The notes under the pieces are model-generated. The model saw only the letters and a list, made by a program, of their open reading frames with translations, did not search any database and had not been told where the DNA came from. Made by a program: the position numbers and the translations under genes. 52,400 nt of DNA, taken from positions 1-52,400 of the forward strand of contig JAUSEP010000009.1 of assembly GCA_030650195.1 (NCBI GenBank). Direction: 5' to 3'. Position 1 is the stretch's first letter. Each line of letters opens with the position of its first letter. Shown one piece after another: positions 315 through 44,389 of the stretch. This DNA is from Candidatus Berkelbacteria bacterium (GTDB lineage: Bacteria; Patescibacteriota; UBA1384; 2-12-FULL-50-11).

Positions 315-698
315 TGGTGGAGCTGCCGAGGATCGAACTCGGGTCCGAAAACTAACGACCAAAGTGTCTACAAGCTTAGTTTGTTTTATTTTTCTTGAAA
401 ATACAGCTCTAAACAGACAAAACACTGTATTTTCCAGCATCAATTCTTAGTGTCTAAACGATGCCTCTTAGACAAGCATCCGATAATATGGCGCAACAAG
501 TCTCCATCGGAGTTAAGGCTTGTTACGGCTCTCGGGTTTAGGCGAGGGCTAAGACCGGGCTAAAGCTAAACGCGTTAGCTAAAGTAGCTTTAGCACGACT
601 TAATACGTTTGCACGTAATTGTTGTTACCAATTAGGCAGATAACTTTCCGCTTGCGTACTTTGGTTGTAAATGTTCCCGTCGAAGCCAATTCAGCCCC
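315..698 (-). ncRNA. ssrA: tmRNA (transfer-messenger RNA), one-piece
   Basis: 5' end is GGGGCTGAATTGGCTTCGACGGGAAC (698 downward). 3' end is GAGTTCGATCCTCGGCAGCTCCACCA (ending at 315). The acceptor stem GGGGCTG/CAGCTCC has a G3:U70 pair. The candidate tag frame 612-538 ends ...PVLALA-TAA. Confidence 0.93.
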
Positions 699-7638: not shown

Positions 7639-7712
7639 GGTCCCATCGTCTAGTGGCCTAGGACGTCGCCTTTTCATGGCGAAGATCGCGGGTTCGACTC
7701 CCGCTGGGACCG
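7639..7712 (+). tRNA. tRNA-Glu (UUC)
   Basis: GGTCCCA/TGGGACC acceptor stem, anticodon loop TTTTCAT, T arm GCGGG-TTCGACT-CCCGC. Confidence 0.92.
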
Positions 7713-7788
7713 CTGAATGTGAATTCTCGCCAAACCTGTTGTTAGAACCTTCTACAGGAGAAGCGTTCTCATTAGGTGTAGCAGTCTA

Positions 7789-8118
7789 TTGACAGCACGA
7801 AACCCGTTCTCTACCATGCGGCTCATGGCCAAGAACGATGTCGAAATCTACAAGGCGCAAACACTGGCGGTGGAGAGCTTGCTCGACCATCACCCGGAAT
7901 TCGATCCGGCGGCGGATGCTGAATTCTCCGAGCACGAGCGTAAGGTGTTCGCGTATGTGTTTCAGCCGGATTGGGACAAGTATGGCGACGACTACCACCA
8001 GGTCTTCGAACACCTACTGACCAAAGAGCCTCGCCAGCTGAAAGAAGCTCAGCTGGTTCTTCAAAAGTTCTTCCGAGCCCATGGGGTCGATCCAACGGGC
8101 TTGGAGTTAGTGCTCTGA
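7789..8118 (+). CDS. Hypothetical protein in the GC-rich islet (true start probably ATG 7816 or 7825)
   Basis: It is the longest coherent frame, and a perfect hairpin follows its stop. A TTGACA (7789-7794)-17-TACCAT (7812-7817) promoter-like element lies inside the track ORF, which favours MAKNDVEIYK... (7825) as the start. Confidence 0.5.
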   Translation: MTARNPFSTMRLMAKNDVEIYKAQTLAVESLLDHHPEFDPAADAEFSEHERKVFAYVFQPDWDKYGDDYHQVFEHLLTKEPRQLKEAQLVLQKFFRAHGVDPTGLELVL

Positions 8119-8127
8119 CCTTCAACC

Positions 8128-8153
8128 AGAGGCTCGGTAGAAACCGAGCCTCT
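8128..8153. terminator. Perfect 10-bp hairpin between convergent islet genes (bidirectional terminator candidate)
   Basis: AGAGGCTCGG-tagaaa-CCGAGCCTCT. Confidence 0.6.
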
Positions 8154-8157
8154 CAAC

Positions 8158-8376
8158 TTACTTATCGTCAGAATGGATCTTCTCGTAGCTGATCGATCCG
8201 TCTGACTGCTTTGTTCCAGCCGTTGCATCGTTGTGGGTCGGCCCGCTGGTCTGACCCGCGTGATGATGGCTCGGCTGACCGATCGTTTCGCCCTGGGCTC
8301 GCCTCTTGGCAATCGCTAATCTGCCCATCTCGGAGATGGCTTGGTAGAAGACGGTGAGATCGCTTTGCTTGCTCAT
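8158..8376 (-). CDS. Hypothetical small protein (72 aa) in the GC-rich islet
   Basis: MSKQSDLTVFYQAISEMGRLAIAKRRAQGE... The ATG at 8376 is preceded by GGAAGGG at a typical SD distance. The longer track ORF (8439) lacks an RBS. Confidence 0.45.
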   Translation of the reverse strand: MSKQSDLTVFYQAISEMGRLAIAKRRAQGETIGQPSHHHAGQTSGPTHNDATAGTKQSDGSISYEKIHSDDK

Positions 8377-8520
8377 GCTGCCCTTCCAACTTCCGCCGTA
8401 TTTCCATTGTTTGTCAAAAAAGTTGCATCCGCGAAACACAGTTCTTCATCATCTAAACCTGCTAACAGAGTGCGAATGCGTTCTCGCCAAGCCCGCAAAG
8501 GCAGAGCGGCTAGGATGCAC

Positions 8521-8916
8521 CTAGCCGCTTTCGTGTTGGGTTATGGCTTCTTCCATCTCGGCTTCTGCTTCGTGGATTTTTTCTAGAGTCAGGCGCAGAG
8601 GCAGAGGAAGCTGTCGCTCGTATTCAAGCTGCGCCAACTTAGAACGGGCTTGTTTGATCAGCTCAGTAAGAGCCTCTCTTTCGCCGACTACCTCCGCTCG
8701 AAGAAGCTGGGCTTCCAAGCTAGCGATGCGTTCCCCAAGAATTTTGGTCCTTAGGTCACTGCGAACATCAAGCTCGGTTGCACGCTCTTGCTCTTTCTGT
8801 TTGCCTTTGTGGCGGACTAGAAGCCAGGAAACCGCCCCTAGGGCAGCTAAGCCAGCCCCAATACCCCACAATGCTTTTGTATTGAGCAACTTGGTTTCCA
8901 TCTCTTTCTTACTCAA
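8521..8916 (-). CDS. Hypothetical membrane-anchored coiled-coil protein
   Basis: TTG start at 8916, preceded by GAGGAGGTG with a 5-nt spacer. It has one TM helix (ALWGIGAGLAALGAVSWLLV) followed by heptad-like Glu/Leu/Arg-rich sequence. The 10-bp hairpin 8505-8529 overlaps its stop. Confidence 0.6.
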   Translation of the reverse strand: MSKKEMETKLLNTKALWGIGAGLAALGAVSWLLVRHKGKQKEQERATELDVRSDLRTKILGERIASLEAQLLRAEVVGEREALTELIKQARSKLAQLEYERQLPLPLRLTLEKIHEAEAEMEEAITQHESG

Positions 8917-11372: not shown

Positions 11373-12279
11373 GTGAAGACATAATACTCTCTAAAGGAAT
11401 TTTCGCTAGGCCGATAACTTTGTCTGCCCCTCCGTAGTAAAGTCGAATTTTGCCATGGGCTACTACTGCACCGGTCGGAAAAACAACGTTACTTACTACG
11501 CCCCGTCTTTCCCAGTCAAAATGCGGTGACATAATAGGATATTTAGTTCTTTTTAAAACTACTGCCGGATTTTCTTTTGCTAGTAGTACCGCTCCTAGTG
11601 AGTAAGTGTGGTTAGTGGAGACACCGTGATAGAGCAGCAGATAGCCTTCATCGATTTCGATCGGTGGACAAGCGGCGCCAATCTTCAGCTCCTCCCAAGG
11701 TTCCTTTGACGTCATCATCTCAATATTGCCTTCCCACTTTTTCAAATCCCGCGATCGAGCTATGAAAATACTTGGATCTACCCGATGGATTAGCCAATAA
11801 AAACCAAGGTGCTTTTGAGGCACTATTACGGCATCCTTACTATCTATGTCCGGTAGTATTACACCCAATCTTTGGAAGGATCGCATGTCTCTGGTTTTGA
11901 GAGCGCCAATTCTTACTCGCCAAGGAGTATGGCTCGGATCGAGTGGTTGGTTGATTGGTTTAGTACCGGCCGGATAAACCGAAGCAGCAGTATAAGTAAC
12001 AAAAATATCTCGACCAATAACTGTAGCGCGCGGATCTTCAACTCCTAACCGTTCGTAAGGGTTGTTAGGGTCGCCTTCGAAAATAGGTTCGTCAAAACGA
12101 GTGAAAGTTTCGCCATCTTCTGAAATAGCTAGACCAAACCGTGAGATATGATCGGCACCAACGGCCCGGTAGAGTAAATGAACCTTTCCGCCGATCTCAG
12201 CTACTGCCGGATTTAAAACACCGCCTCTTTCCCACCATATGTCTCTAGGTTCAAGGACAACTTGTCGTGGGAATTCCAT
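11353..12279 (-). CDS. GH130-family glycosidase/phosphorylase (DUF377-type beta-propeller)
   Basis: VLNPAVAEIGGKVHLLYRAVG, FGLAISEDGETF, LGVEDPRATVIG and YYGGAD motifs are typical of GH130. Confidence 0.8.
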   Translation of the reverse strand: MEFPRQVVLEPRDIWWERGGVLNPAVAEIGGKVHLLYRAVGADHISRFGLAISEDGETFTRFDEPIFEGDPNNPYERLGVEDPRATVIGRDIFVTYTAASVYPAGTKPINQPLDPSHTPWRVRIGALKTRDMRSFQRLGVILPDIDSKDAVIVPQKHLGFYWLIHRVDPSIFIARSRDLKKWEGNIEMMTSKEPWEELKIGAACPPIEIDEGYLLLYHGVSTNHTYSLGAVLLAKENPAVVLKRTKYPIMSPHFDWERRGVVSNVVFPTGAVVAHGKIRLYYGGADKVIGLAKIPLESIMSSLDEKTL

Positions 12280-38527: not shown

Positions 38528-39784
38528 TTATTGTTTTACTCCAGAAAGGGCTTTTTTCATCAGTGTCTCTAGCATACTCGTTTGACCAATCAAGTCTAAG
38601 GCAACATTTCCTAAGGCCATCGGAGTAACTTGAGAAATATCCTGGAGAGTTTTTGTTTCGTCTACCATATTGGCCACATCATTCGGCTTAATAAATTGAA
38701 CCTCAGGCGCTCGAGCAAATGGCAGATCTTTTGACCACTCCCTATCAGACAAAACTTCTTTAATTTCTGGCAGATTGCTGCCCCCACCACAAAGTAGAAT
38801 TTTTGATGGTAGCAGATCGCCCTCACCAAAATCTTCCAACGATATTTGTAATGCAGATAGCCAAACCTGCGTATCATTTTTAAGGGCGTGTCGAACAAGT
38901 TCAGATTTTTCTTTATCTAGCTTACCGCTGGAGTAGGCAATCTTAGCTTCTTCTGCATTAGCAAAAGTCTCGCCTAATACCGCCGCGACTCTTTTTGTAA
39001 AAGCTCTACCTCCTATAGCAAACATTTTCGTGCCATCAACTCCGCCGTTTCGTACAACGGCAATATCTGTTGTTCCACCACCAATATCTATAAAGGTTGC
39101 GGCAAAGTCTGTAGATTCTTCGTTTAGGCATCGAGCAACTGCGTACGGTTCAGCGGCAATCGCCAGTAATTCTAAGTTTAGCTCCCGAACAACGGTTTCT
39201 AACGCTCCAAATTGGACGATAGGGGCAAAAGCGTTGTAAACCCCGACGGAAAGCTCCTTGCCCTGGTAACTCATTGGATTTGAAACCTTGTAACCATCAA
39301 TAACAACAGAGACGATTGCGGCGTTAACTAATTGAATATCTATTTCTTCTAAGCCAGTTTCTTCAGCTAACTCCTTGCGAGCTTGAGTGAAGGCCTGAGC
39401 TTGAACTTGGTTAACGATATCTTGAAGTTCGGAAACCTGGATTTGAGTTTGGGGTTTTTGACGAGTAACTTTTACCGTTGTCGTCGCCCCCTTTACAAGC
39501 TCTCCAGCTATACCAACGATCGCTTTATCCGGAAGGAATTGAGCTTGGGTTGCAGCTTGTTCAATAGCCTTCTCACAGTTTTGGGCAACGCCATGGATAT
39601 CCGTAATTCCACCACCCTGCATGTCAGATAGCCTCTGTCGAGCTCGGCCAACTCCACGGATATGACCTTCTCCGTCTATAGCCTCAAAAACTAGAGCTTT
39701 CACAAACTCCGTCCCGATGTCTAAGGATATTGCCCAATTGTTCTGTTTTTTGCGCCCCCCAAACAGCCCCATATGTAGTATCAA
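38528..39784 (-). CDS. ftsA: FtsA/PilM-like actin-family ATPase
   Basis: ISLDIGTEFVKALVF and FIDIGGGTTDIAVV are the phosphate-1 and phosphate-2 motifs, followed by LLCGGGSNLP. Confidence 0.75.
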   Translation of the reverse strand: MILHMGLFGGRKKQNNWAISLDIGTEFVKALVFEAIDGEGHIRGVGRARQRLSDMQGGGITDIHGVAQNCEKAIEQAATQAQFLPDKAIVGIAGELVKGATTTVKVTRQKPQTQIQVSELQDIVNQVQAQAFTQARKELAEETGLEEIDIQLVNAAIVSVVIDGYKVSNPMSYQGKELSVGVYNAFAPIVQFGALETVVRELNLELLAIAAEPYAVARCLNEESTDFAATFIDIGGGTTDIAVVRNGGVDGTKMFAIGGRAFTKRVAAVLGETFANAEEAKIAYSSGKLDKEKSELVRHALKNDTQVWLSALQISLEDFGEGDLLPSKILLCGGGSNLPEIKEVLSDREWSKDLPFARAPEVQFIKPNDVANMVDETKTLQDISQVTPMALGNVALDLIGQTSMLETLMKKALSGVKQ

Positions 39785-39838
39785 CGTACCAGATATGCAC
39801 TACCTTCCGCAATCAACAGAATAATGTAAGCTCGAGCT

Positions 39839-41287
39839 ATGAGTGTTGAAAATGGACCAAGTGACAAAGATATAAACTTTAAGGTACCTTTAGCAGACGG
39901 AACTGCACCGTCAGGCGAACCCACCTTGGACCCAGAAAGCGAGAAAGGCGAGGAACGAGTCGAGCGACTGGTCGAGTCCGAGGAGATGGCACTATTACGC
40001 AGCGAGGCGTACATAACAATCAACGCGCTATTAAAAGCTGGTGCAGCTCATGTCAAAGAAGCTGGTCAAACAACGGTACTGCCTCGAGACTCATTTGTTA
40101 AAAAGTACCTTAACTCGTACCTAGAACTCGGCCAGGCCGCCATTGAAAAAGTTGTTCCAGAAGGTCAAGAGCAGGCTCAATTCGACCTTGTGGTTATCAG
40201 TGCTCGTTTCGAGCAAGATTGTGGATTTGAGCCGGAAGCCATCGAGCGTCTTGGTCAGACCGATGCAGCCCTAACCGACGCTGATAGCAAAGAGCTGAGT
40301 AGCCGCTGGGTGGAGTCCAAGACCACCTGGGTCGGGCGCCCACGGCTAGAAACTGAAAAGTTGGCCGAACCCATGGTTGAGTCAGCAGAAATGGTTCAAT
40401 TACGTCAGCTGGCCTCCGACACTATCGAGAGATTGCGTCCAGAGACCGGAGAATTGCAAGCCGGGTTTGCACTGAATCGAGATGAATTTGTCGCTAGCTT
40501 TCTAGACCCATACCTAGAGCTCGGGCAGGGATTGATTAAGCAATCTGTCCCGGAAGAGGGTTGGGAGACGGCCGGGCTCGAGCTAGCAGTAATGGCTGTA
40601 CAGTTTCAAGCTGACTGCGGTTTCAAAAGCAATGGTGATAACTCACTTATCATTCTCACTGACGAGGTTAAGCATACAAAGCCCGAGAAGCTACCGATTT
40701 TTCGAAAGAATCTAGATGTACTAAAAGCTCGGGCGGAAGCAAGTTGGGTCAAGTCAACGATTCAGCCCGAGGTTCAGATTCCTCAAGATCAAATCGAGCG
40801 TTTCCTCCAAGGCGTCGCTATAGAAACCTTTGAAGAGGAAGAAAGCTCTGGGCAATCGATCAATTGCCAGCTGAACGAAGATGTTAGTCTGCCCGACTTT
40901 CGACTCCTTATTCAAAAAGCGATTCTGCCCCAACTAACCTACACCGACACGCTCAGGGTTAGGGGTGATAACCTACCGCCAGAATATCTAGATGCTCTGG
41001 CCGACGAGGTGCTTCGAACTGACTTCCCGATTATCTGTGTCTACGACAAGGCGTCCGGTGAATACCAAGTTACTTATGATGAAACGGGGGAGGATTCCTC
41101 GGAGGACGAACCGACTCCAGCAGAATTAATTGACGCCTGCCGAGAGGTGCTTGATGGAGATTCGTTAGAAGCTCTCAATGAATGTGAAGATTTCGAAGAG
41201 GCGATGGGACTAGTGTTCACCATGCTCATTGAAGCTGGAGTTGAAGATCCCGAACAGTTCCTACGTGAAAAAGGCCTGATTCAATAA
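39839..41287 (+). CDS. Acidic hypothetical protein with an internal tandem duplication of an approximately 130-aa module (P1)
   Basis: aa 45-165 align with aa 180-305: VESxEMxxLR ... RDxFVxxxLxxYLELGQxxIxxxVPE ... FxxDCGF ... SxWVxS. It is GC-richer than its neighbours and lacks a signal peptide or TM segment. Confidence 0.65.
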   Translation: MSVENGPSDKDINFKVPLADGTAPSGEPTLDPESEKGEERVERLVESEEMALLRSEAYITINALLKAGAAHVKEAGQTTVLPRDSFVKKYLNSYLELGQAAIEKVVPEGQEQAQFDLVVISARFEQDCGFEPEAIERLGQTDAALTDADSKELSSRWVESKTTWVGRPRLETEKLAEPMVESAEMVQLRQLASDTIERLRPETGELQAGFALNRDEFVASFLDPYLELGQGLIKQSVPEEGWETAGLELAVMAVQFQADCGFKSNGDNSLIILTDEVKHTKPEKLPIFRKNLDVLKARAEASWVKSTIQPEVQIPQDQIERFLQGVAIETFEEEESSGQSINCQLNEDVSLPDFRLLIQKAILPQLTYTDTLRVRGDNLPPEYLDALADEVLRTDFPIICVYDKASGEYQVTYDETGEDSSEDEPTPAELIDACREVLDGDSLEALNECEDFEEAMGLVFTMLIEAGVEDPEQFLREKGLIQ

Positions 41288-41289
41288 CC

Positions 41290-41313
41290 CCCTGTGCGGA
41301 GGCCTCTTCTTTA
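41290..41313. repeat. Copy A: half-copy of the alaS 3'-end hairpin repeat (3' arm plus T-rich tail only)
   Basis: CCCTGTGCGGAGGCCTCTTCTTTA is identical over 24 nt to 42735-42758. It begins 2 nt after the P1 stop. Confidence 0.85.
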
Positions 41314-41380
41314 CCCCCTAACCCTGGACAAGCAACGCCAATAGCGATAAAGTTTCTGCATAGTTCGTACGGAGGACAAT

Positions 41381-41941
41381 TTGAGAACTTTTCAAATGCA
41401 AGCACTCGAGAAACTGTCAGAGATTCTCGAACCAGAGTCCCTAAGCACTCTTCTCTCTGTCGCCAGCGGTTTTACTGCGGCTAACATAGGAAGTGTTAAT
41501 GACTTACTCGCTGATCCAGACGGTTTCACCACCTGGATCGAACAGGAGCGGAAACAGGACAAAGAAGAGCCGGAATCAGTCGACGCAAGCCTGTCGTTTC
41601 AGAGATTTGTTCAAGAGGGAGTTCGCCTCTTTCTGGAATCCACGCCGTCAACTGTTTGCGGGACGGGGATGGAAATGTTGGGCAGCTTCGACGGAACAGG
41701 CTTTCGCAAGCACTGCCTTAGCTGTAAGAAGTGTGCTGACGCCCTCATCTATCTCCACTGGATGGCACTCCAGAAACATCTGGTCGATTGTTTGTGGTTG
41801 GCTAGTCAGAAAAATAAGGGGAAACTAGGGCGGTTGCTGGGCATCCCGGAAACGGAGCTCACCAAGGATTTTGTTGAAAGCTACCCGGAAGATGAGAAAG
41901 TATTCAGCCATCTAATCCGGCTGAAGCAACGCAAACCCTAA
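41381..41941 (+). CDS. Hypothetical Cys-rich protein, paralogue of 42120-42707 (P2); C-x17-H-x3-C-x2-C motif
   Basis: TTG start preceded by GGAGG plus 5 nt. C93...H111-C-L-S-C115-K-K-C118. It aligns with P3 (LExESLxxL, TPxxxCxxG, FxxHCxxCxxC). Confidence 0.65.
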   Translation: MRTFQMQALEKLSEILEPESLSTLLSVASGFTAANIGSVNDLLADPDGFTTWIEQERKQDKEEPESVDASLSFQRFVQEGVRLFLESTPSTVCGTGMEMLGSFDGTGFRKHCLSCKKCADALIYLHWMALQKHLVDCLWLASQKNKGKLGRLLGIPETELTKDFVESYPEDEKVFSHLIRLKQRKP

Positions 41942-41954
41942 CTTTGTCACTCTC

Positions 41955-41999
41955 GCCTTGAGCCTTCGCACCCTGTGCGGAGGCTTCTTCTTTAAGAAT
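41955..41999. repeat. Copy B: relic of the alaS 3' end (hairpin repeat), frameshifted
   Basis: GCCTTGAGCCTTCGCACCCTGTGCGGAGGCTTCTTCTTTAAGAAT differs from 42717-42763 by one substitution and a 2-nt gap. Its reverse strand reads ILKEEASAQG / VRRLKARVTK. Confidence 0.85.
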
Positions 42000-42119
42000 T
42001 TGAAGCGACCTAGTTGGCCGGTTTTTCTATATTTGGACTAAATGAAACGGCATAGAACCATTCACTTCTCTTGGAAAACGAAGTACTATGCCCATATCTT
42101 TGAACGTTAGGAGATCAGG

Positions 42120-42707
42120 ATGCAACAAGCGATAACCATGCGCCGACTAGGAAGGGTCCTAGAGGCTGAAAGTTTGGCAAAATTGACCGAGTATCTACCC
42201 GATCTATTCAGGATCGACTCAGACCTCTTCTCGGCAATCAGCGAAAGTCTAGATCGGGCTCGGGAAGAAGGGAAATGGTTTTTGGGTGAGTGCTTCGGAA
42301 GACTAGCACCAGAAAACAGCGAGACTCGCAAACTAGCTCATGCAGACATTGAGAAGCTGGCACCGGTGGACGATCATGAATTCAAAAAGGCCCTCGCTTC
42401 CTTAACGGAGTTCTTCAACTACACACCGGTTCAGCCTTGCCAAGACGGCTTGATCTTGTTGGCGCAACTCAACCAGCAAGCTTTCGAGTCTCATTGCGAG
42501 AACTGTCCAAACTGCGTTGTAGCAGGCCGTTACGCCGACTGCTACCTGTTTTGGCACCACCTCAATTCGTTGGTGGAAGAGATACTGCGATCAGAGCCAG
42601 ATGCTATGCGAGAAGGTCAGCCAGACAGCGAGCGTCTGGTGAGAACAATCTTCTCAGAACCCGTGACCGGCCTTTCGAAGCTACGCTTGAAAGCTACCGA
42701 GACCTAA
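42120..42707 (+). CDS. Hypothetical Cys-rich protein, paralogue of 41381-41941 (P3); C-x17-H-x3-C-x2-C motif
   Basis: AGGAG plus 6 nt precede the ATG. C107...H125-C-E-N-C129-P-N-C132. Its stop TAA (42705-07) overlaps the alaS stop (42704-06). Confidence 0.65.
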   Translation: MQQAITMRRLGRVLEAESLAKLTEYLPDLFRIDSDLFSAISESLDRAREEGKWFLGECFGRLAPENSETRKLAHADIEKLAPVDDHEFKKALASLTEFFNYTPVQPCQDGLILLAQLNQQAFESHCENCPNCVVAGRYADCYLFWHHLNSLVEEILRSEPDAMREGQPDSERLVRTIFSEPVTGLSKLRLKATET

Positions 42708-44389
42708 ACAACCCGTGCCTTGAGCCTTCGCACTCCCTGTGCGGAGGCCTCTTCTTTAAGAATCTCGAATTTTCCTAATTCGCCTGTATTTTTTATGTGG
42801 GGGCCACCACAAAGTTCTTTTGAAAAGTCCCCGATCGAATAAACCGAGACTGTTTCACCGTATTTTTGACCAAACTCTGCCAGTGCTCCAGATTTCAAAG
42901 CCTCATCTTTAGACATTTCTTGCTTCTCAACTGGTAAGCTAGCTTCAATTTTATCGTTTACGATAGTCTCTACTTCCTTTATCTCGTCGTCAGTTAGCTT
43001 GCGGTCGAAAGAAAAGTCTAGTCGCAAACGCTCTTTGGTAACATTAGATCCTTTTTGAACTACACCGTTACCCAAAACTTTTCGTAATGCCGCCAGCAGT
43101 AAGTGATGAGCGGTATGGTGCTTAATTGTCTGCTCATCGTGATCGGCTAGTCCGCCCTTAAATAACCCCTCAGAACCTTGTCGTGAAGTTTCTTGGTGTT
43201 CAGCGAATAATCTAGCGAATAATTCGCTATCAAAATCCCAACCTAGGTCACGTAGATGCTCTAAGAGCAACTCTTTCGGGAAACCAAAAGACTCGAAAAG
43301 ATAGAATGCCAATTTAGTTATCTCCTCGCTGGTAGGCTGATTACTTTGGGTTGCCACCCACCGATCTAGGTGCCCAATTGCTCGAACCAAATTTTTTTCA
43401 AATTGAGCTTGCTCGTCAGCAAAAACTTTAATAACTTTCTCTGGATCTGTCAGCGTGTAAGACGGAGCATAATAAGAATGGATTTCTGTAATTATCTTAG
43501 ATATGTCAGCCTTGATAGCTGCTCGACGTTCCAAAAAAACAATTTTCCGGATGAGTCTACGTAAAATATAGTCACGGCCTTTGTTGGACGGAGTTACTCC
43601 AACACTAACCAAAAATAGAATTGCCCGAAGATGATCAACAATAATTTTACTCTCGTATTCGCGTGTTGGATCTACCATATCCACCCAACTCACAAACGGC
43701 TCGATCGCCCAGACACTACGGTGACTCTGTAAGGTTGCCGAAAGACGTTCTAAGCCACTTCCGGTGTCTAAGCCTGCCTGGGGTAATTTCTCGAACTTAC
43801 TATCAGTATTCTTGTAATACTCGGCAAAAACTAAATTCCAAACTTCAATACCATCAATATAAATTTCAGTGCAAGGACCGCAAGGACCTTCGTCGCCCGC
43901 TGGCCCCCAAAAGTTATCAACACGCCCCATTCTTTTGACTTCAATACCCAACATCTGCCAAATACCTTCTGATTCGGTATCTCCTGGCGTCAACTTGTCG
44001 CCCTTAAAGACCGTAGCCGACACTCTCTCTTTCACAACTCCGAGTCTCTTGTGAACAAAGTTCCAAGCTTCTTTAATGGCAGTTTCTTTCATCCTTAGGC
44101 TCGACTCTTCACCGAAGCGGAAGTTACCAAGCATCTCAAATATTGTTAGATGTGTGGCATCACCAACTTCGCCGATATCTGAAGTTCGGAAAACTGGCTG
44201 GATAGTTACCACAGATTTAGCAGGCGCATCCAGCGGGGATGAATAGAACTCCTTGAACTGCTGCATACCCGCAGTAGTAAACAGAACTGACGGATCATTA
44301 CGAGGTATAAGACTAGATTCGGCCTGTCGTACGTATCCAAGGTCTGTGAAGTAGCCAACAAAGTTTTTTCTAACCTCGTCTAATTGCAT
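42704..44389 (-). CDS. alaS: Alanine--tRNA ligase, short form ending after the editing domain (no C-Ala domain)
   Basis: N-terminus VRKNFVGYFTDLGYVRQAESSLIPRNDPSVLFTTAGMQQFK. Editing motifs HTAHHLL and CGGPH. The C-terminus ...GVRRLKARVV corresponds to the conserved AGVRRIEAV segment. Confidence 0.92.
   Translation of the reverse strand: MQLDEVRKNFVGYFTDLGYVRQAESSLIPRNDPSVLFTTAGMQQFKEFYSSPLDAPAKSVVTIQPVFRTSDIGEVGDATHLTIFEMLGNFRFGEESSLRMKETAIKEAWNFVHKRLGVVKERVSATVFKGDKLTPGDTESEGIWQMLGIEVKRMGRVDNFWGPAGDEGPCGPCTEIYIDGIEVWNLVFAEYYKNTDSKFEKLPQAGLDTGSGLERLSATLQSHRSVWAIEPFVSWVDMVDPTREYESKIIVDHLRAILFLVSVGVTPSNKGRDYILRRLIRKIVFLERRAAIKADISKIITEIHSYYAPSYTLTDPEKVIKVFADEQAQFEKNLVRAIGHLDRWVATQSNQPTSEEITKLAFYLFESFGFPKELLLEHLRDLGWDFDSELFARLFAEHQETSRQGSEGLFKGGLADHDEQTIKHHTAHHLLLAALRKVLGNGVVQKGSNVTKERLRLDFSFDRKLTDDEIKEVETIVNDKIEASLPVEKQEMSKDEALKSGALAEFGQKYGETVSVYSIGDFSKELCGGPHIKNTGELGKFEILKEEASAQGVRRLKARVV
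42717..42763. repeat. Copy C: hairpin repeat lying inside the functional alaS 3' end
   Basis: GCCTTGAGCCTTCGCACTCCCTGTGCGGAGGCCTCTTCTTTAAGAAT. The reverse strand encodes ILKEEASAQGVRRLKA of AlaRS. On the plus strand it forms a hairpin (42724-42748) followed by a T-rich tail after P3. Confidence 0.85.

Follow-up and report, generated by a model that had tools for sequence, protein, structure and literature searches.

Between an ftsA-like gene and alaS, a 52.4-kb contig stretch (hereafter the window) from a metagenome-assembled genome of Candidatus Berkelbacteria, a member of the candidate phyla radiation (CPR), has a variable slot that holds two unrelated, lineage-restricted orphan families. 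Three open reading frames (ORFs) stand in it on the plus strand: P1 (39839-41287), which belongs to one family, and P2 (41381-41941) and P3 (42120-42707), which belong to the other. With a probability of about 60%, the slot gained P2 and P3 in two or more steps, through recombination that used the 3' end of alaS as its anchor. Both orphan families of the locus are new, the slot is prone to recombination, and two of its genes were probably imported.

The coordinates and strand of the three ORFs, and their position between two minus-strand genes, agreed with those given in the original prediction, which had been made from the DNA sequence without database searches; in the NCBI annotation they are the hypothetical proteins Q7K33_00665, 00670 and 00675. 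The left border of the gap is the ftsA-like gene (38528-39772, minus strand; FtsA/PilM/MreB superfamily, Pfam FtsA 1.1e-15), the start of which was taken as the ATG at 39772 (MGLFGGRKK) because it is kept in orthologues when their N-termini are aligned. A divergent intergenic region of 66 bp (39773-39838) separates it from P1. The right border is alaS (42704-44389, minus strand), which is intact in the window, encodes a short CPR-type alanyl-tRNA synthetase of 561 aa (Pfam tRNA-synt_2c 1.7e-80, plus tRNA_SAD) and is overlapped by P3 by 4 nt at its stop.

Slot content differs among Berkelbacteria

Loci of relatives are labelled L001, L002 and so on, and homologous proteins P0003, P0007 and so on. 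In the nearest relative, L001, the ftsA-like protein was 98.8% and the AlaS protein 93% identical to those of the window at the amino acid level. DNA homology between the two lineages ran to the P1 stop (41286) and resumed at the alaS stop (42704); between these points the window has 1417 bp carrying P2 and P3, versus 199 unrelated bp with a 48-aa ORF in L001, a state that was seen in two assemblies. Every P2-family member for which context was available had its home in this slot. A P2-type gene stood there alone in L005/6, L008-L012, L013/14 and L016, and a P1-type gene was found in L001/2, L003/L018 and L004/L019. L015 had the opposite order, with P0010 (P2-type) followed by a 344-aa protein and then alaS; the R domain of this protein (the repeated unit of P1, described below) matched both P1 repeats (E=6e-8 and 2e-7), and its C-terminal half was different. 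The two families therefore co-occurred twice, in the window and in L015, in differing arrangements, and the functional link that these two co-occurrences suggest is weak.

The ftsA-like protein was exceptionally conserved, not only in L001 but also in lineages where it was 77-82% identical and AlaS only 61-70%, and the gap genes next to it were the least conserved in the neighbourhood. A third slot orphan of 122 aa, containing Cys residues (CFYCCQ...), was encoded directly 5' of the P1 homologue in L019 (302-670; partial at L004 1-309). This ORF, the 48-aa ORF of L001 and the C-terminal half of the L015 protein had no family match and were unrelated to P2 and P3. The contigs of L003 and L018, which carry the single-repeat type of P1, both end 3-4 nt past a perfect 32-nt palindrome, GTTAATCTATTCTCATATGAGAATAGATTAAC (L003 1852-1883; L018 9076-9107), situated ~70 nt after the P1 stop and absent from the window; these ends could mark either a hairpin at which assembly broke off or a true border of variable DNA. 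A literature search found no paper mentioning both Berkelbacteria and FtsA.

Copies of the alaS 3' end at the orphan genes

The 3' end of alaS occurred in three copies in the region (3 matches versus 0 expected), giving units with a regular spacing of 681 and 764 bp, and such repeats were absent from the other loci, being confined to the locus of this lineage. Copy C (42717-42763) comprises the functional last ~16 codons of alaS and reads ILKEEASAQGVRRLKA on the minus strand. Copy A (41290-41313), located after the P1 stop, consists of 24 nt identical to nt 42735-42758 of the alaS 3' end; it is without the 5' half of the hairpin formed by the other copies and cannot fold. Copy B (41954-42033), located after the P2 stop, is a pseudo-alaS 3' end of ~80 nt, of which the stop-proximal 47 nt were ~98% identical to the resident alaS end (17/17 and 28/29 nt versus copy C). 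The interior of copy B was of another type: in the minus frame it encodes KTGQLGRF, the allele type of L004 and L005, where the resident gene has TGELGKF. It scored 35 against L004, 27 against L005, 19 against resident alaS and 13 against L001, and the corresponding score was reached by none of 2000 shuffles for L004 or for L005 and by 20 of 2000 for the resident gene. In L003/L018, the corresponding place behind the P1 homologue has a decayed but fuller pseudo-alaS, which argues that copy A is old.

Within the 66 nt 5' of P2 lies an upstream element of the P2 family, TAACCCTGGACAAGCAACG, followed by a -10-like TAAAGT (41319-41353, plus strand; promoter-like TGGACA-17-TAAAGT). L005, L008 and L015 likewise have the TAACCCTGGACAAGCAACG element 5' of their P2 homologues. 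Its neighbour in the window is copy A, which takes the place that the ftsA start has in other loci. As the promoter, P2 and the start of alaS sequence are contiguous, the P2 unit appears to be a slice of the gap of another lineage. The region upstream of P3 (42034-42119, with AGGAG at 42109-42113) had no similarity to any other locus, and no pseudo-ftsA fragment was found 5' of either P2 or P3.

On the plus strand, copies B and C form 12-bp hairpins (41960-41986 and 42724-42748; -22.3 and -20.0 kcal/mol, z -2.7 and -4.1), each followed by a T-rich tail, and these were the two best terminator-like plus-strand sites in the region. Judged by their sequence, they look like terminators for P2 and P3, respectively. 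In alaS itself, S->A and I->L changes in an otherwise invariant SSQGVRRIKA motif are needed for the stem to form, which suggests selection on the hairpin.

Base composition also sets the slot apart. At 49.9% G+C, the block from P1 to P3 was the G+C-richest 2.9-kb stretch of the window, where such stretches averaged 45.3 +/- 1.4%. The contrast that had been predicted was therefore real in direction and overstated in size: 60-nt lines of the block had a mean of 49.9% (range 35-60%) rather than 53-58%, and the flanking genes fell at 43.8-45.7% rather than 37-47%. G+C content at third codon positions (GC3) was 0.561 in P2 and P3, the top two among 44 ORFs, compared to 0.414 +/- 0.045 in the others (a difference of 3.3 standard deviations, SD). 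The GC3 of P2 fits the G+C-richer genomes that hold its closest homologues, and P2 homologues elsewhere were not G+C-richer than their own, G+C-richer, genomes. The excess in P1 was mostly at first positions (GC1 0.648) because of its acidic residues, with Asp and Glu making up 21% of the protein.

Probable stepwise import, or descent in place

We postulate that two imported gap units were stacked at the alaS end by recombination, either by a Campbell-type single crossover with a gap slice that had been circularised, or by homology-facilitated illegitimate recombination. Each step would displace the previous alaS end as a pseudo-fragment and leave an intact end behind, at present copy C; copy A would then be the oldest and most decayed scar, and copy B the next. 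The P2 unit would be a gap slice from a G+C-richer, L005-like lineage, comprising its native promoter, P2 and ~80 nt of donor alaS. The 47-nt hairpin core of copies B and C may now act in the manner of an intrinsic terminator for the two genes; its likeness in the two copies is probably due to selection or gene conversion.

Alternatively, a P2-type gene may have descended vertically and been duplicated in place, together with the alaS 3' end, by unequal crossing-over, with L001 losing both genes and the repeats being kept alike by gene conversion or terminator selection. This would agree with the constant residence of the P2 family in the slot, with a P2 divergence that roughly tracks the divergence of species, with the functional-looking terminators of copies B and C and with the regular spacing of the units. 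Simple duplication in situ fits poorly, because P2 and P3 are only 24% identical, and P3 is no closer to P2 than to other members (23-28%), yet the repeats on either side of P3 are ~98% identical. Nor would it explain why copy B has an interior of foreign alaS type or why the GC3 of P2 and P3 lies 3.3 SD above that of the genome's genes, and terminator selection does not account for copy A, which cannot fold. We regard descent in place as unlikely.

Several points weigh against stepwise import. The identities of P2 to its orthologues (44, 37 and 33%) roughly track those of a fast-evolving neighbour, a 582-aa protein (54, 44 and 45%), and vertical descent with loss in L001 is a possible reading compatible with this. 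All three copies of the alaS end share one unusual hairpin variant, which needs either identity of donor and recipient or later gene conversion. Among ORFs of at least 120 aa, the window encodes no integrase, recombinase or transposase, and the mechanism of recombination is deduced from the scars; no long imported tract was found in alaS. A donor type can be proposed for the P2 unit only. The functional reading given below, for its part, is limited by the AlphaFold2 (AF2) model of P2, which was unusable with a predicted local distance difference test score (pLDDT) of 46, and by a link between the P1 and P2 families that amounts to two co-occurrences.

The apparent stacking might also be an artefact in which gap variants of different strains were joined through shared alaS-end k-mers during assembly. 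An independent Logan assembly was an exact substring of the window over 39756-42764 (3,009 bp) with identical gene order, which argues against chimerism; its two ends coincide with the gap borders, which hints at strain heterogeneity. A chimera would suit a strain-variable gap, these contig ends, and the breaks of the L003 and L018 contigs, both ~105 nt past the P1 homologue. The Logan assembler uses k-mers of k=31. The longest exact identity between copies (A/C) is 24 nt, shorter than this and far shorter than reads, and the two assemblies gave an identical 3,009 bp, though their source reads are probably the same. Moreover, the junctions between promoter and copy A, and between the pseudo-alaS interior and the P3 upstream region, are unlike k-mer jumping between intact loci. 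Taken together, we consider a chimera to be extremely improbable.

An invariant Cys/His site in the P2/P3 family

P2 was read as a protein of 186 aa from a TTG at 41381, in preference to the 181 aa from an ATG at 41396 in the NCBI annotation, because GGAGG (41371-41375) lies 6 nt 5' of the TTG and the resulting MRTF N-terminus is common to P0008. P3, with 195 aa, is a deeply diverged member of the same family. The two are paralogues, as had been proposed (E=7e-7, 29% identity), alignable only over a 51-aa core around the Cys motif; their global identity was 24%, and P3 was 23-28% identical to every family member. A word-indexed search among 5.8 billion proteins found one relative of P2 (P0007, 42%) and no close homologue of P3. 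A HMMER profile search of 1.84 billion representatives yielded seven true members of 181-195 aa, P2 and P3 included, adding P0008-P0011; an eighth, weak match to a 2401-aa protein (E=6e-4) was treated as spurious and left outside the seven. A scan of GTDB for the P2 family gave nothing, a metagenome scan gave L005 again and nothing else, and scans of viral contigs found neither the P1 nor the P2 family.

Residues L16, S20, L21, C93, G96, F108, H111, C115 and C118 (P2 numbering) were invariant in all seven members, giving a family signature that consists of the four-residue set C-x17-H-x3-C-x2-C and an N-terminal L-x3-S-L motif. The site occupies 41657-41734 in P2 (C93-x17-H111-x3-C115-x2-C118) and 42438-42515 in P3 (C107-x17-H125-x3-C129-x2-C132), and the numbering was verified in both. 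The original prediction had placed these residues correctly and had named beforehand their loss among homologues as a finding that would refute it; all four were present in 7/7 members. It had also included the second residue of an 'HC' pair, C112, which is not conserved: this position is Ala or Gln in two members, and C-x2-C-x2-C occurs in five.

All seven members had a pI of 4.5-5.5 and no hydrophobic segment, and the family is predicted to be all-helical and cytoplasmic; the absence of a transmembrane segment, also part of the original prediction, was borne out by a highest Kyte-Doolittle 19-residue mean of at most 1.24. In the AF2 model of P2, which was built from a 3-sequence alignment and has a pLDDT of 46, one helix finishes at H111 and the following one begins at C118. 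From its residues, the C-H-C-C site is a candidate for metal binding, with zinc the obvious choice and an Fe-S cluster the alternative. A ferredoxin-type 4Fe-4S motif (C-x2-C-x2-C-x3-C) was considered and rejected, as C112 is not conserved and there was no Fer4 match; another Fe-S use of C93, H111, C115 and C118 is possible. One C-H-C-C member had been auto-annotated by JGI as 'PreA subunit'. Scans of P1, P2 and P3 against Pfam, NCBIfam, PHROGs and PADLOC returned nothing above cut-offs, a Pfam scan of all seven C-H-C-C members at E<=10 gave scattered single weak matches only, and a search of PDB sequences with the family profile gave only noise.

P1 and the R-domain family

P1 (482 aa) belongs to an orphan family, here called the R-domain family, of which some five sequence types are known; three relatives were found among the 5.8 billion proteins. 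The layout of the family is an acidic disordered N-terminus, one R domain (two in the window and in L001), an alpha/beta domain and a helical tail. As predicted, P1 is very acidic (pI 4.25, 21% D+E) and contains a tandem duplication, with aa 1-171 and 172-482 sharing 43% identity over 100 aa in BLASTP (E=1e-16). Repeat R1 (aa 39-171; 39953-40351) is helical and has VESEEM..LR, YLELGQ, F.QDCGF and W motifs; it is followed by repeat R2 (aa 172-313; 40352-40777). The duplication was restricted to the lineages of the window and L001, and P0003, P0004 and the L015 protein had a single repeat. The alpha/beta C-domain (aa 314-417; 40778-41089), with the motif RVRGD.LP..YL..LA.E.LRTDFP.I.VYDK.SG.Y, was strongly conserved and modelled with a pLDDT of ~80. 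The helical C-terminal tail (aa 424-482; 41108-41284) was missing from P0004 and cut off in L001/L002 by an in-frame TAA.

Compared to its L001 orthologue, P1 had a ratio of nonsynonymous to synonymous substitution (dN/dS) of 0.20, and neighbouring genes had 0.01-0.08; P1 is therefore a real gene under purifying selection, though fast-evolving. Its dS to L001 was ~0.58, below that of all six neighbours (0.85-2.36, estimates that are near saturation), which could be due to codon or G+C constraint or to P1 having been exchanged between the two lineages more recently. In L001 (11270-11448) and also in L002, the TAA in the P1 orthologue is followed by 58 further codons in the same frame, from which the conserved tail can still be read, up to a TAG at 11446-11448; this was common to two assemblies, and could represent recent truncation, a dispensable tail (P0004 also being without it) or read-through.

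The original prediction had described the block as four copies of one domain, shared by the P1 repeats, P2 and P3. P1 matched P2 or P3 in BLASTP at E ~1, and profile-profile comparison in hhalign of six P1-type repeats with the P2-family profile gave a probability of 0.6%, from profiles of few sequences (effective sequence number, Neff, ~2) that could miss a very remote relationship. These results lend no support to an expansion of one domain, and by sequence comparison P1 and P2/P3 appear to be two unrelated orphan families.

How the two families might work together can be framed tentatively. The C-H-C-C proteins might possibly bind zinc (or Fe-S) and serve as small metal- or redox-dependent regulators partnering the R domain of P1. 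More doubtful still is that they form with it a CPR-specific metal/redox partner module, functionally similar to zinc-binding anti-sigma (ZAS) or WhiB proteins, evolutionarily independent of them, and controlling the divergent FtsA-like protein or RNA polymerase. In such a module each R domain would be bound by one C-H-C-C protein, as with two and two in the window and one each in L015, and the slot would swap alleles between lineages by alaS-anchored recombination.

Other features of the window

Rfam and tRNA scans found no RNA family or RNA gene inside the P1-P3 block. Elsewhere in the window, a tmRNA gene lies at 315-698 (minus strand) and seven tRNA genes at 74, 6620, 7639, 45195, 45282, 47028 and 47159; the first, a tRNA-Cys(aca) of 97 nt (74-170) called by ARAGORN, was not reported by Rfam and is doubtful. 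A second G+C-rich patch (~52%; 7713-8520, extending to 8941) was located directly 3' of the tRNA-Glu gene (7639-7713). It holds ORFs of 109 aa (7789-8118, plus strand) and 131 aa (8521-8916, minus strand), small orphans with no Pfam or Rfam match, and the patch may have been imported as a further small islet next to a tRNA gene.

CPR genomes are tiny and rich in unannotated genes, and here two orphan families are fixed to a slot beside division and cell-wall genes. With its invariant four-residue site, the C-H-C-C family is a concrete, testable candidate among possible regulators specific to a lineage. In the pseudo-alaS scars there is unusually clear sequence-level evidence for exchange of small gene units among related CPR lineages without mobile-element machinery, and recombination at the end of a housekeeping gene bears on how reduced genomes gain novelty.

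Comparison with known systems

In the original prediction, the H-x3-C-x2-C motif had suggested RsrA-type ZAS proteins in P2 and P3, and a set sensing redox state or zinc in which P1 would be the partner-switch component. In ZAS, which belong to the class I anti-sigma domains, Hx3Cx2C extends over helices 2-3 (PMC7406223), the fourth ligand lies ~24-25 residues upstream (RslA H25/H50/C54/C57, RsrA C11/H37/C41/C44; PMC2877774), and the gene usually adjoins one for an extracytoplasmic function (ECF) sigma factor (PMC2877774, PMC7406223). Like RsrA, ChrR and RslA, the C-H-C-C proteins are small, soluble, helical and acidic; they have an invariant F-x2-H-x3-C-x2-C, as in RsrA, and an upstream Cys that could be the fourth ligand, and the low-confidence model places H111 and C118 at a helix junction as in the class I domains. 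The family differs from ZAS in profile, geometry and neighbourhood. None of its seven members matched zf-HC2 of Pfam even at E<=10, the PDB profile search returned no anti-sigma factor, and hhalign against RsrA (query verified against 5frf) gave a probability of 0.8%. The invariant upstream Cys stands at a fixed 17 residues before the His, the motif is central rather than N-terminal, and there is an additional conserved N-terminal L-x3-S-L module. As the original prediction had noted for its own stretch, no sigma factor is encoded in the window, and there was none, ECF or other, at any of more than 10 homologous loci. Membership of ZAS is thus very unlikely, and the C-H-C-C proteins are best kept out of that class, although they may act as a binding switch that depends on metal.

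The role proposed for P1 finds some echo in its C-domain, which has the beta-beta-alpha-beta-alpha-beta order of secondary structure of SpoIIAA/STAS proteins and for which the best local Foldseek matches were SpoIIAA/STAS-like (8ih8_A and 2q3l_B). These had E=0.33-0.53 and template-modelling (TM) scores of 0.33-0.36, the AF2 model of P1 (pLDDT 66) had no match at E<=1e-3 in PDB or BFVD, no Pfam match to the C-domain (STAS included) was obtained, and a PDB sequence profile search gave only noise. The predicted resemblance is a lead, not a match.

The slot also invites comparison with integron arrays, in which single-ORF units are each followed by an imperfect-palindrome repeat, and the original prediction had offered immunity or anti-defence cassettes as a second idea. 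The genes would then be cargo at a hotspot, such as an integron-like array with hairpin attC-type sites, in keeping with single-gene units that each end in a hairpin-forming repeat, slot content that differs among close relatives and atypical composition. We found this highly improbable. There were no matches in PADLOC, PHROGs, Pfam or NCBIfam, no viral contigs carried either family, and no IntI or other integrase was encoded in the 52 kb. The repeats are coding sequence of the adjacent alaS, running past the hairpin as pseudo-alaS, P2 at least has its own conserved promoter, and the families are confined to one slot. An integron cassette array in the strict sense was rejected, since the repeats are without any GTT and so have no attC core (RYYYAAC...GTTRRRY), and no recombinase was found among ORFs of at least 120 aa.

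Stepwise import at the alaS end resembles the behaviour of integrative elements that target the 3' ends of genes (tRNA, tmRNA and protein-gene att sites). These differ from the units described here, which are ~0.7 kb with one orphan gene each and no integrase. In both, direct repeats of the target's 3' end flank each unit, the gene end is regenerated while older copies are displaced and decay, and the inserts are compositionally atypical and absent from a sister genome. The length (~80 nt) and mosaic nature of the pseudo-alaS speak for an exchange between related genomes by homologous or Campbell-type recombination, and against a dedicated site-specific system.

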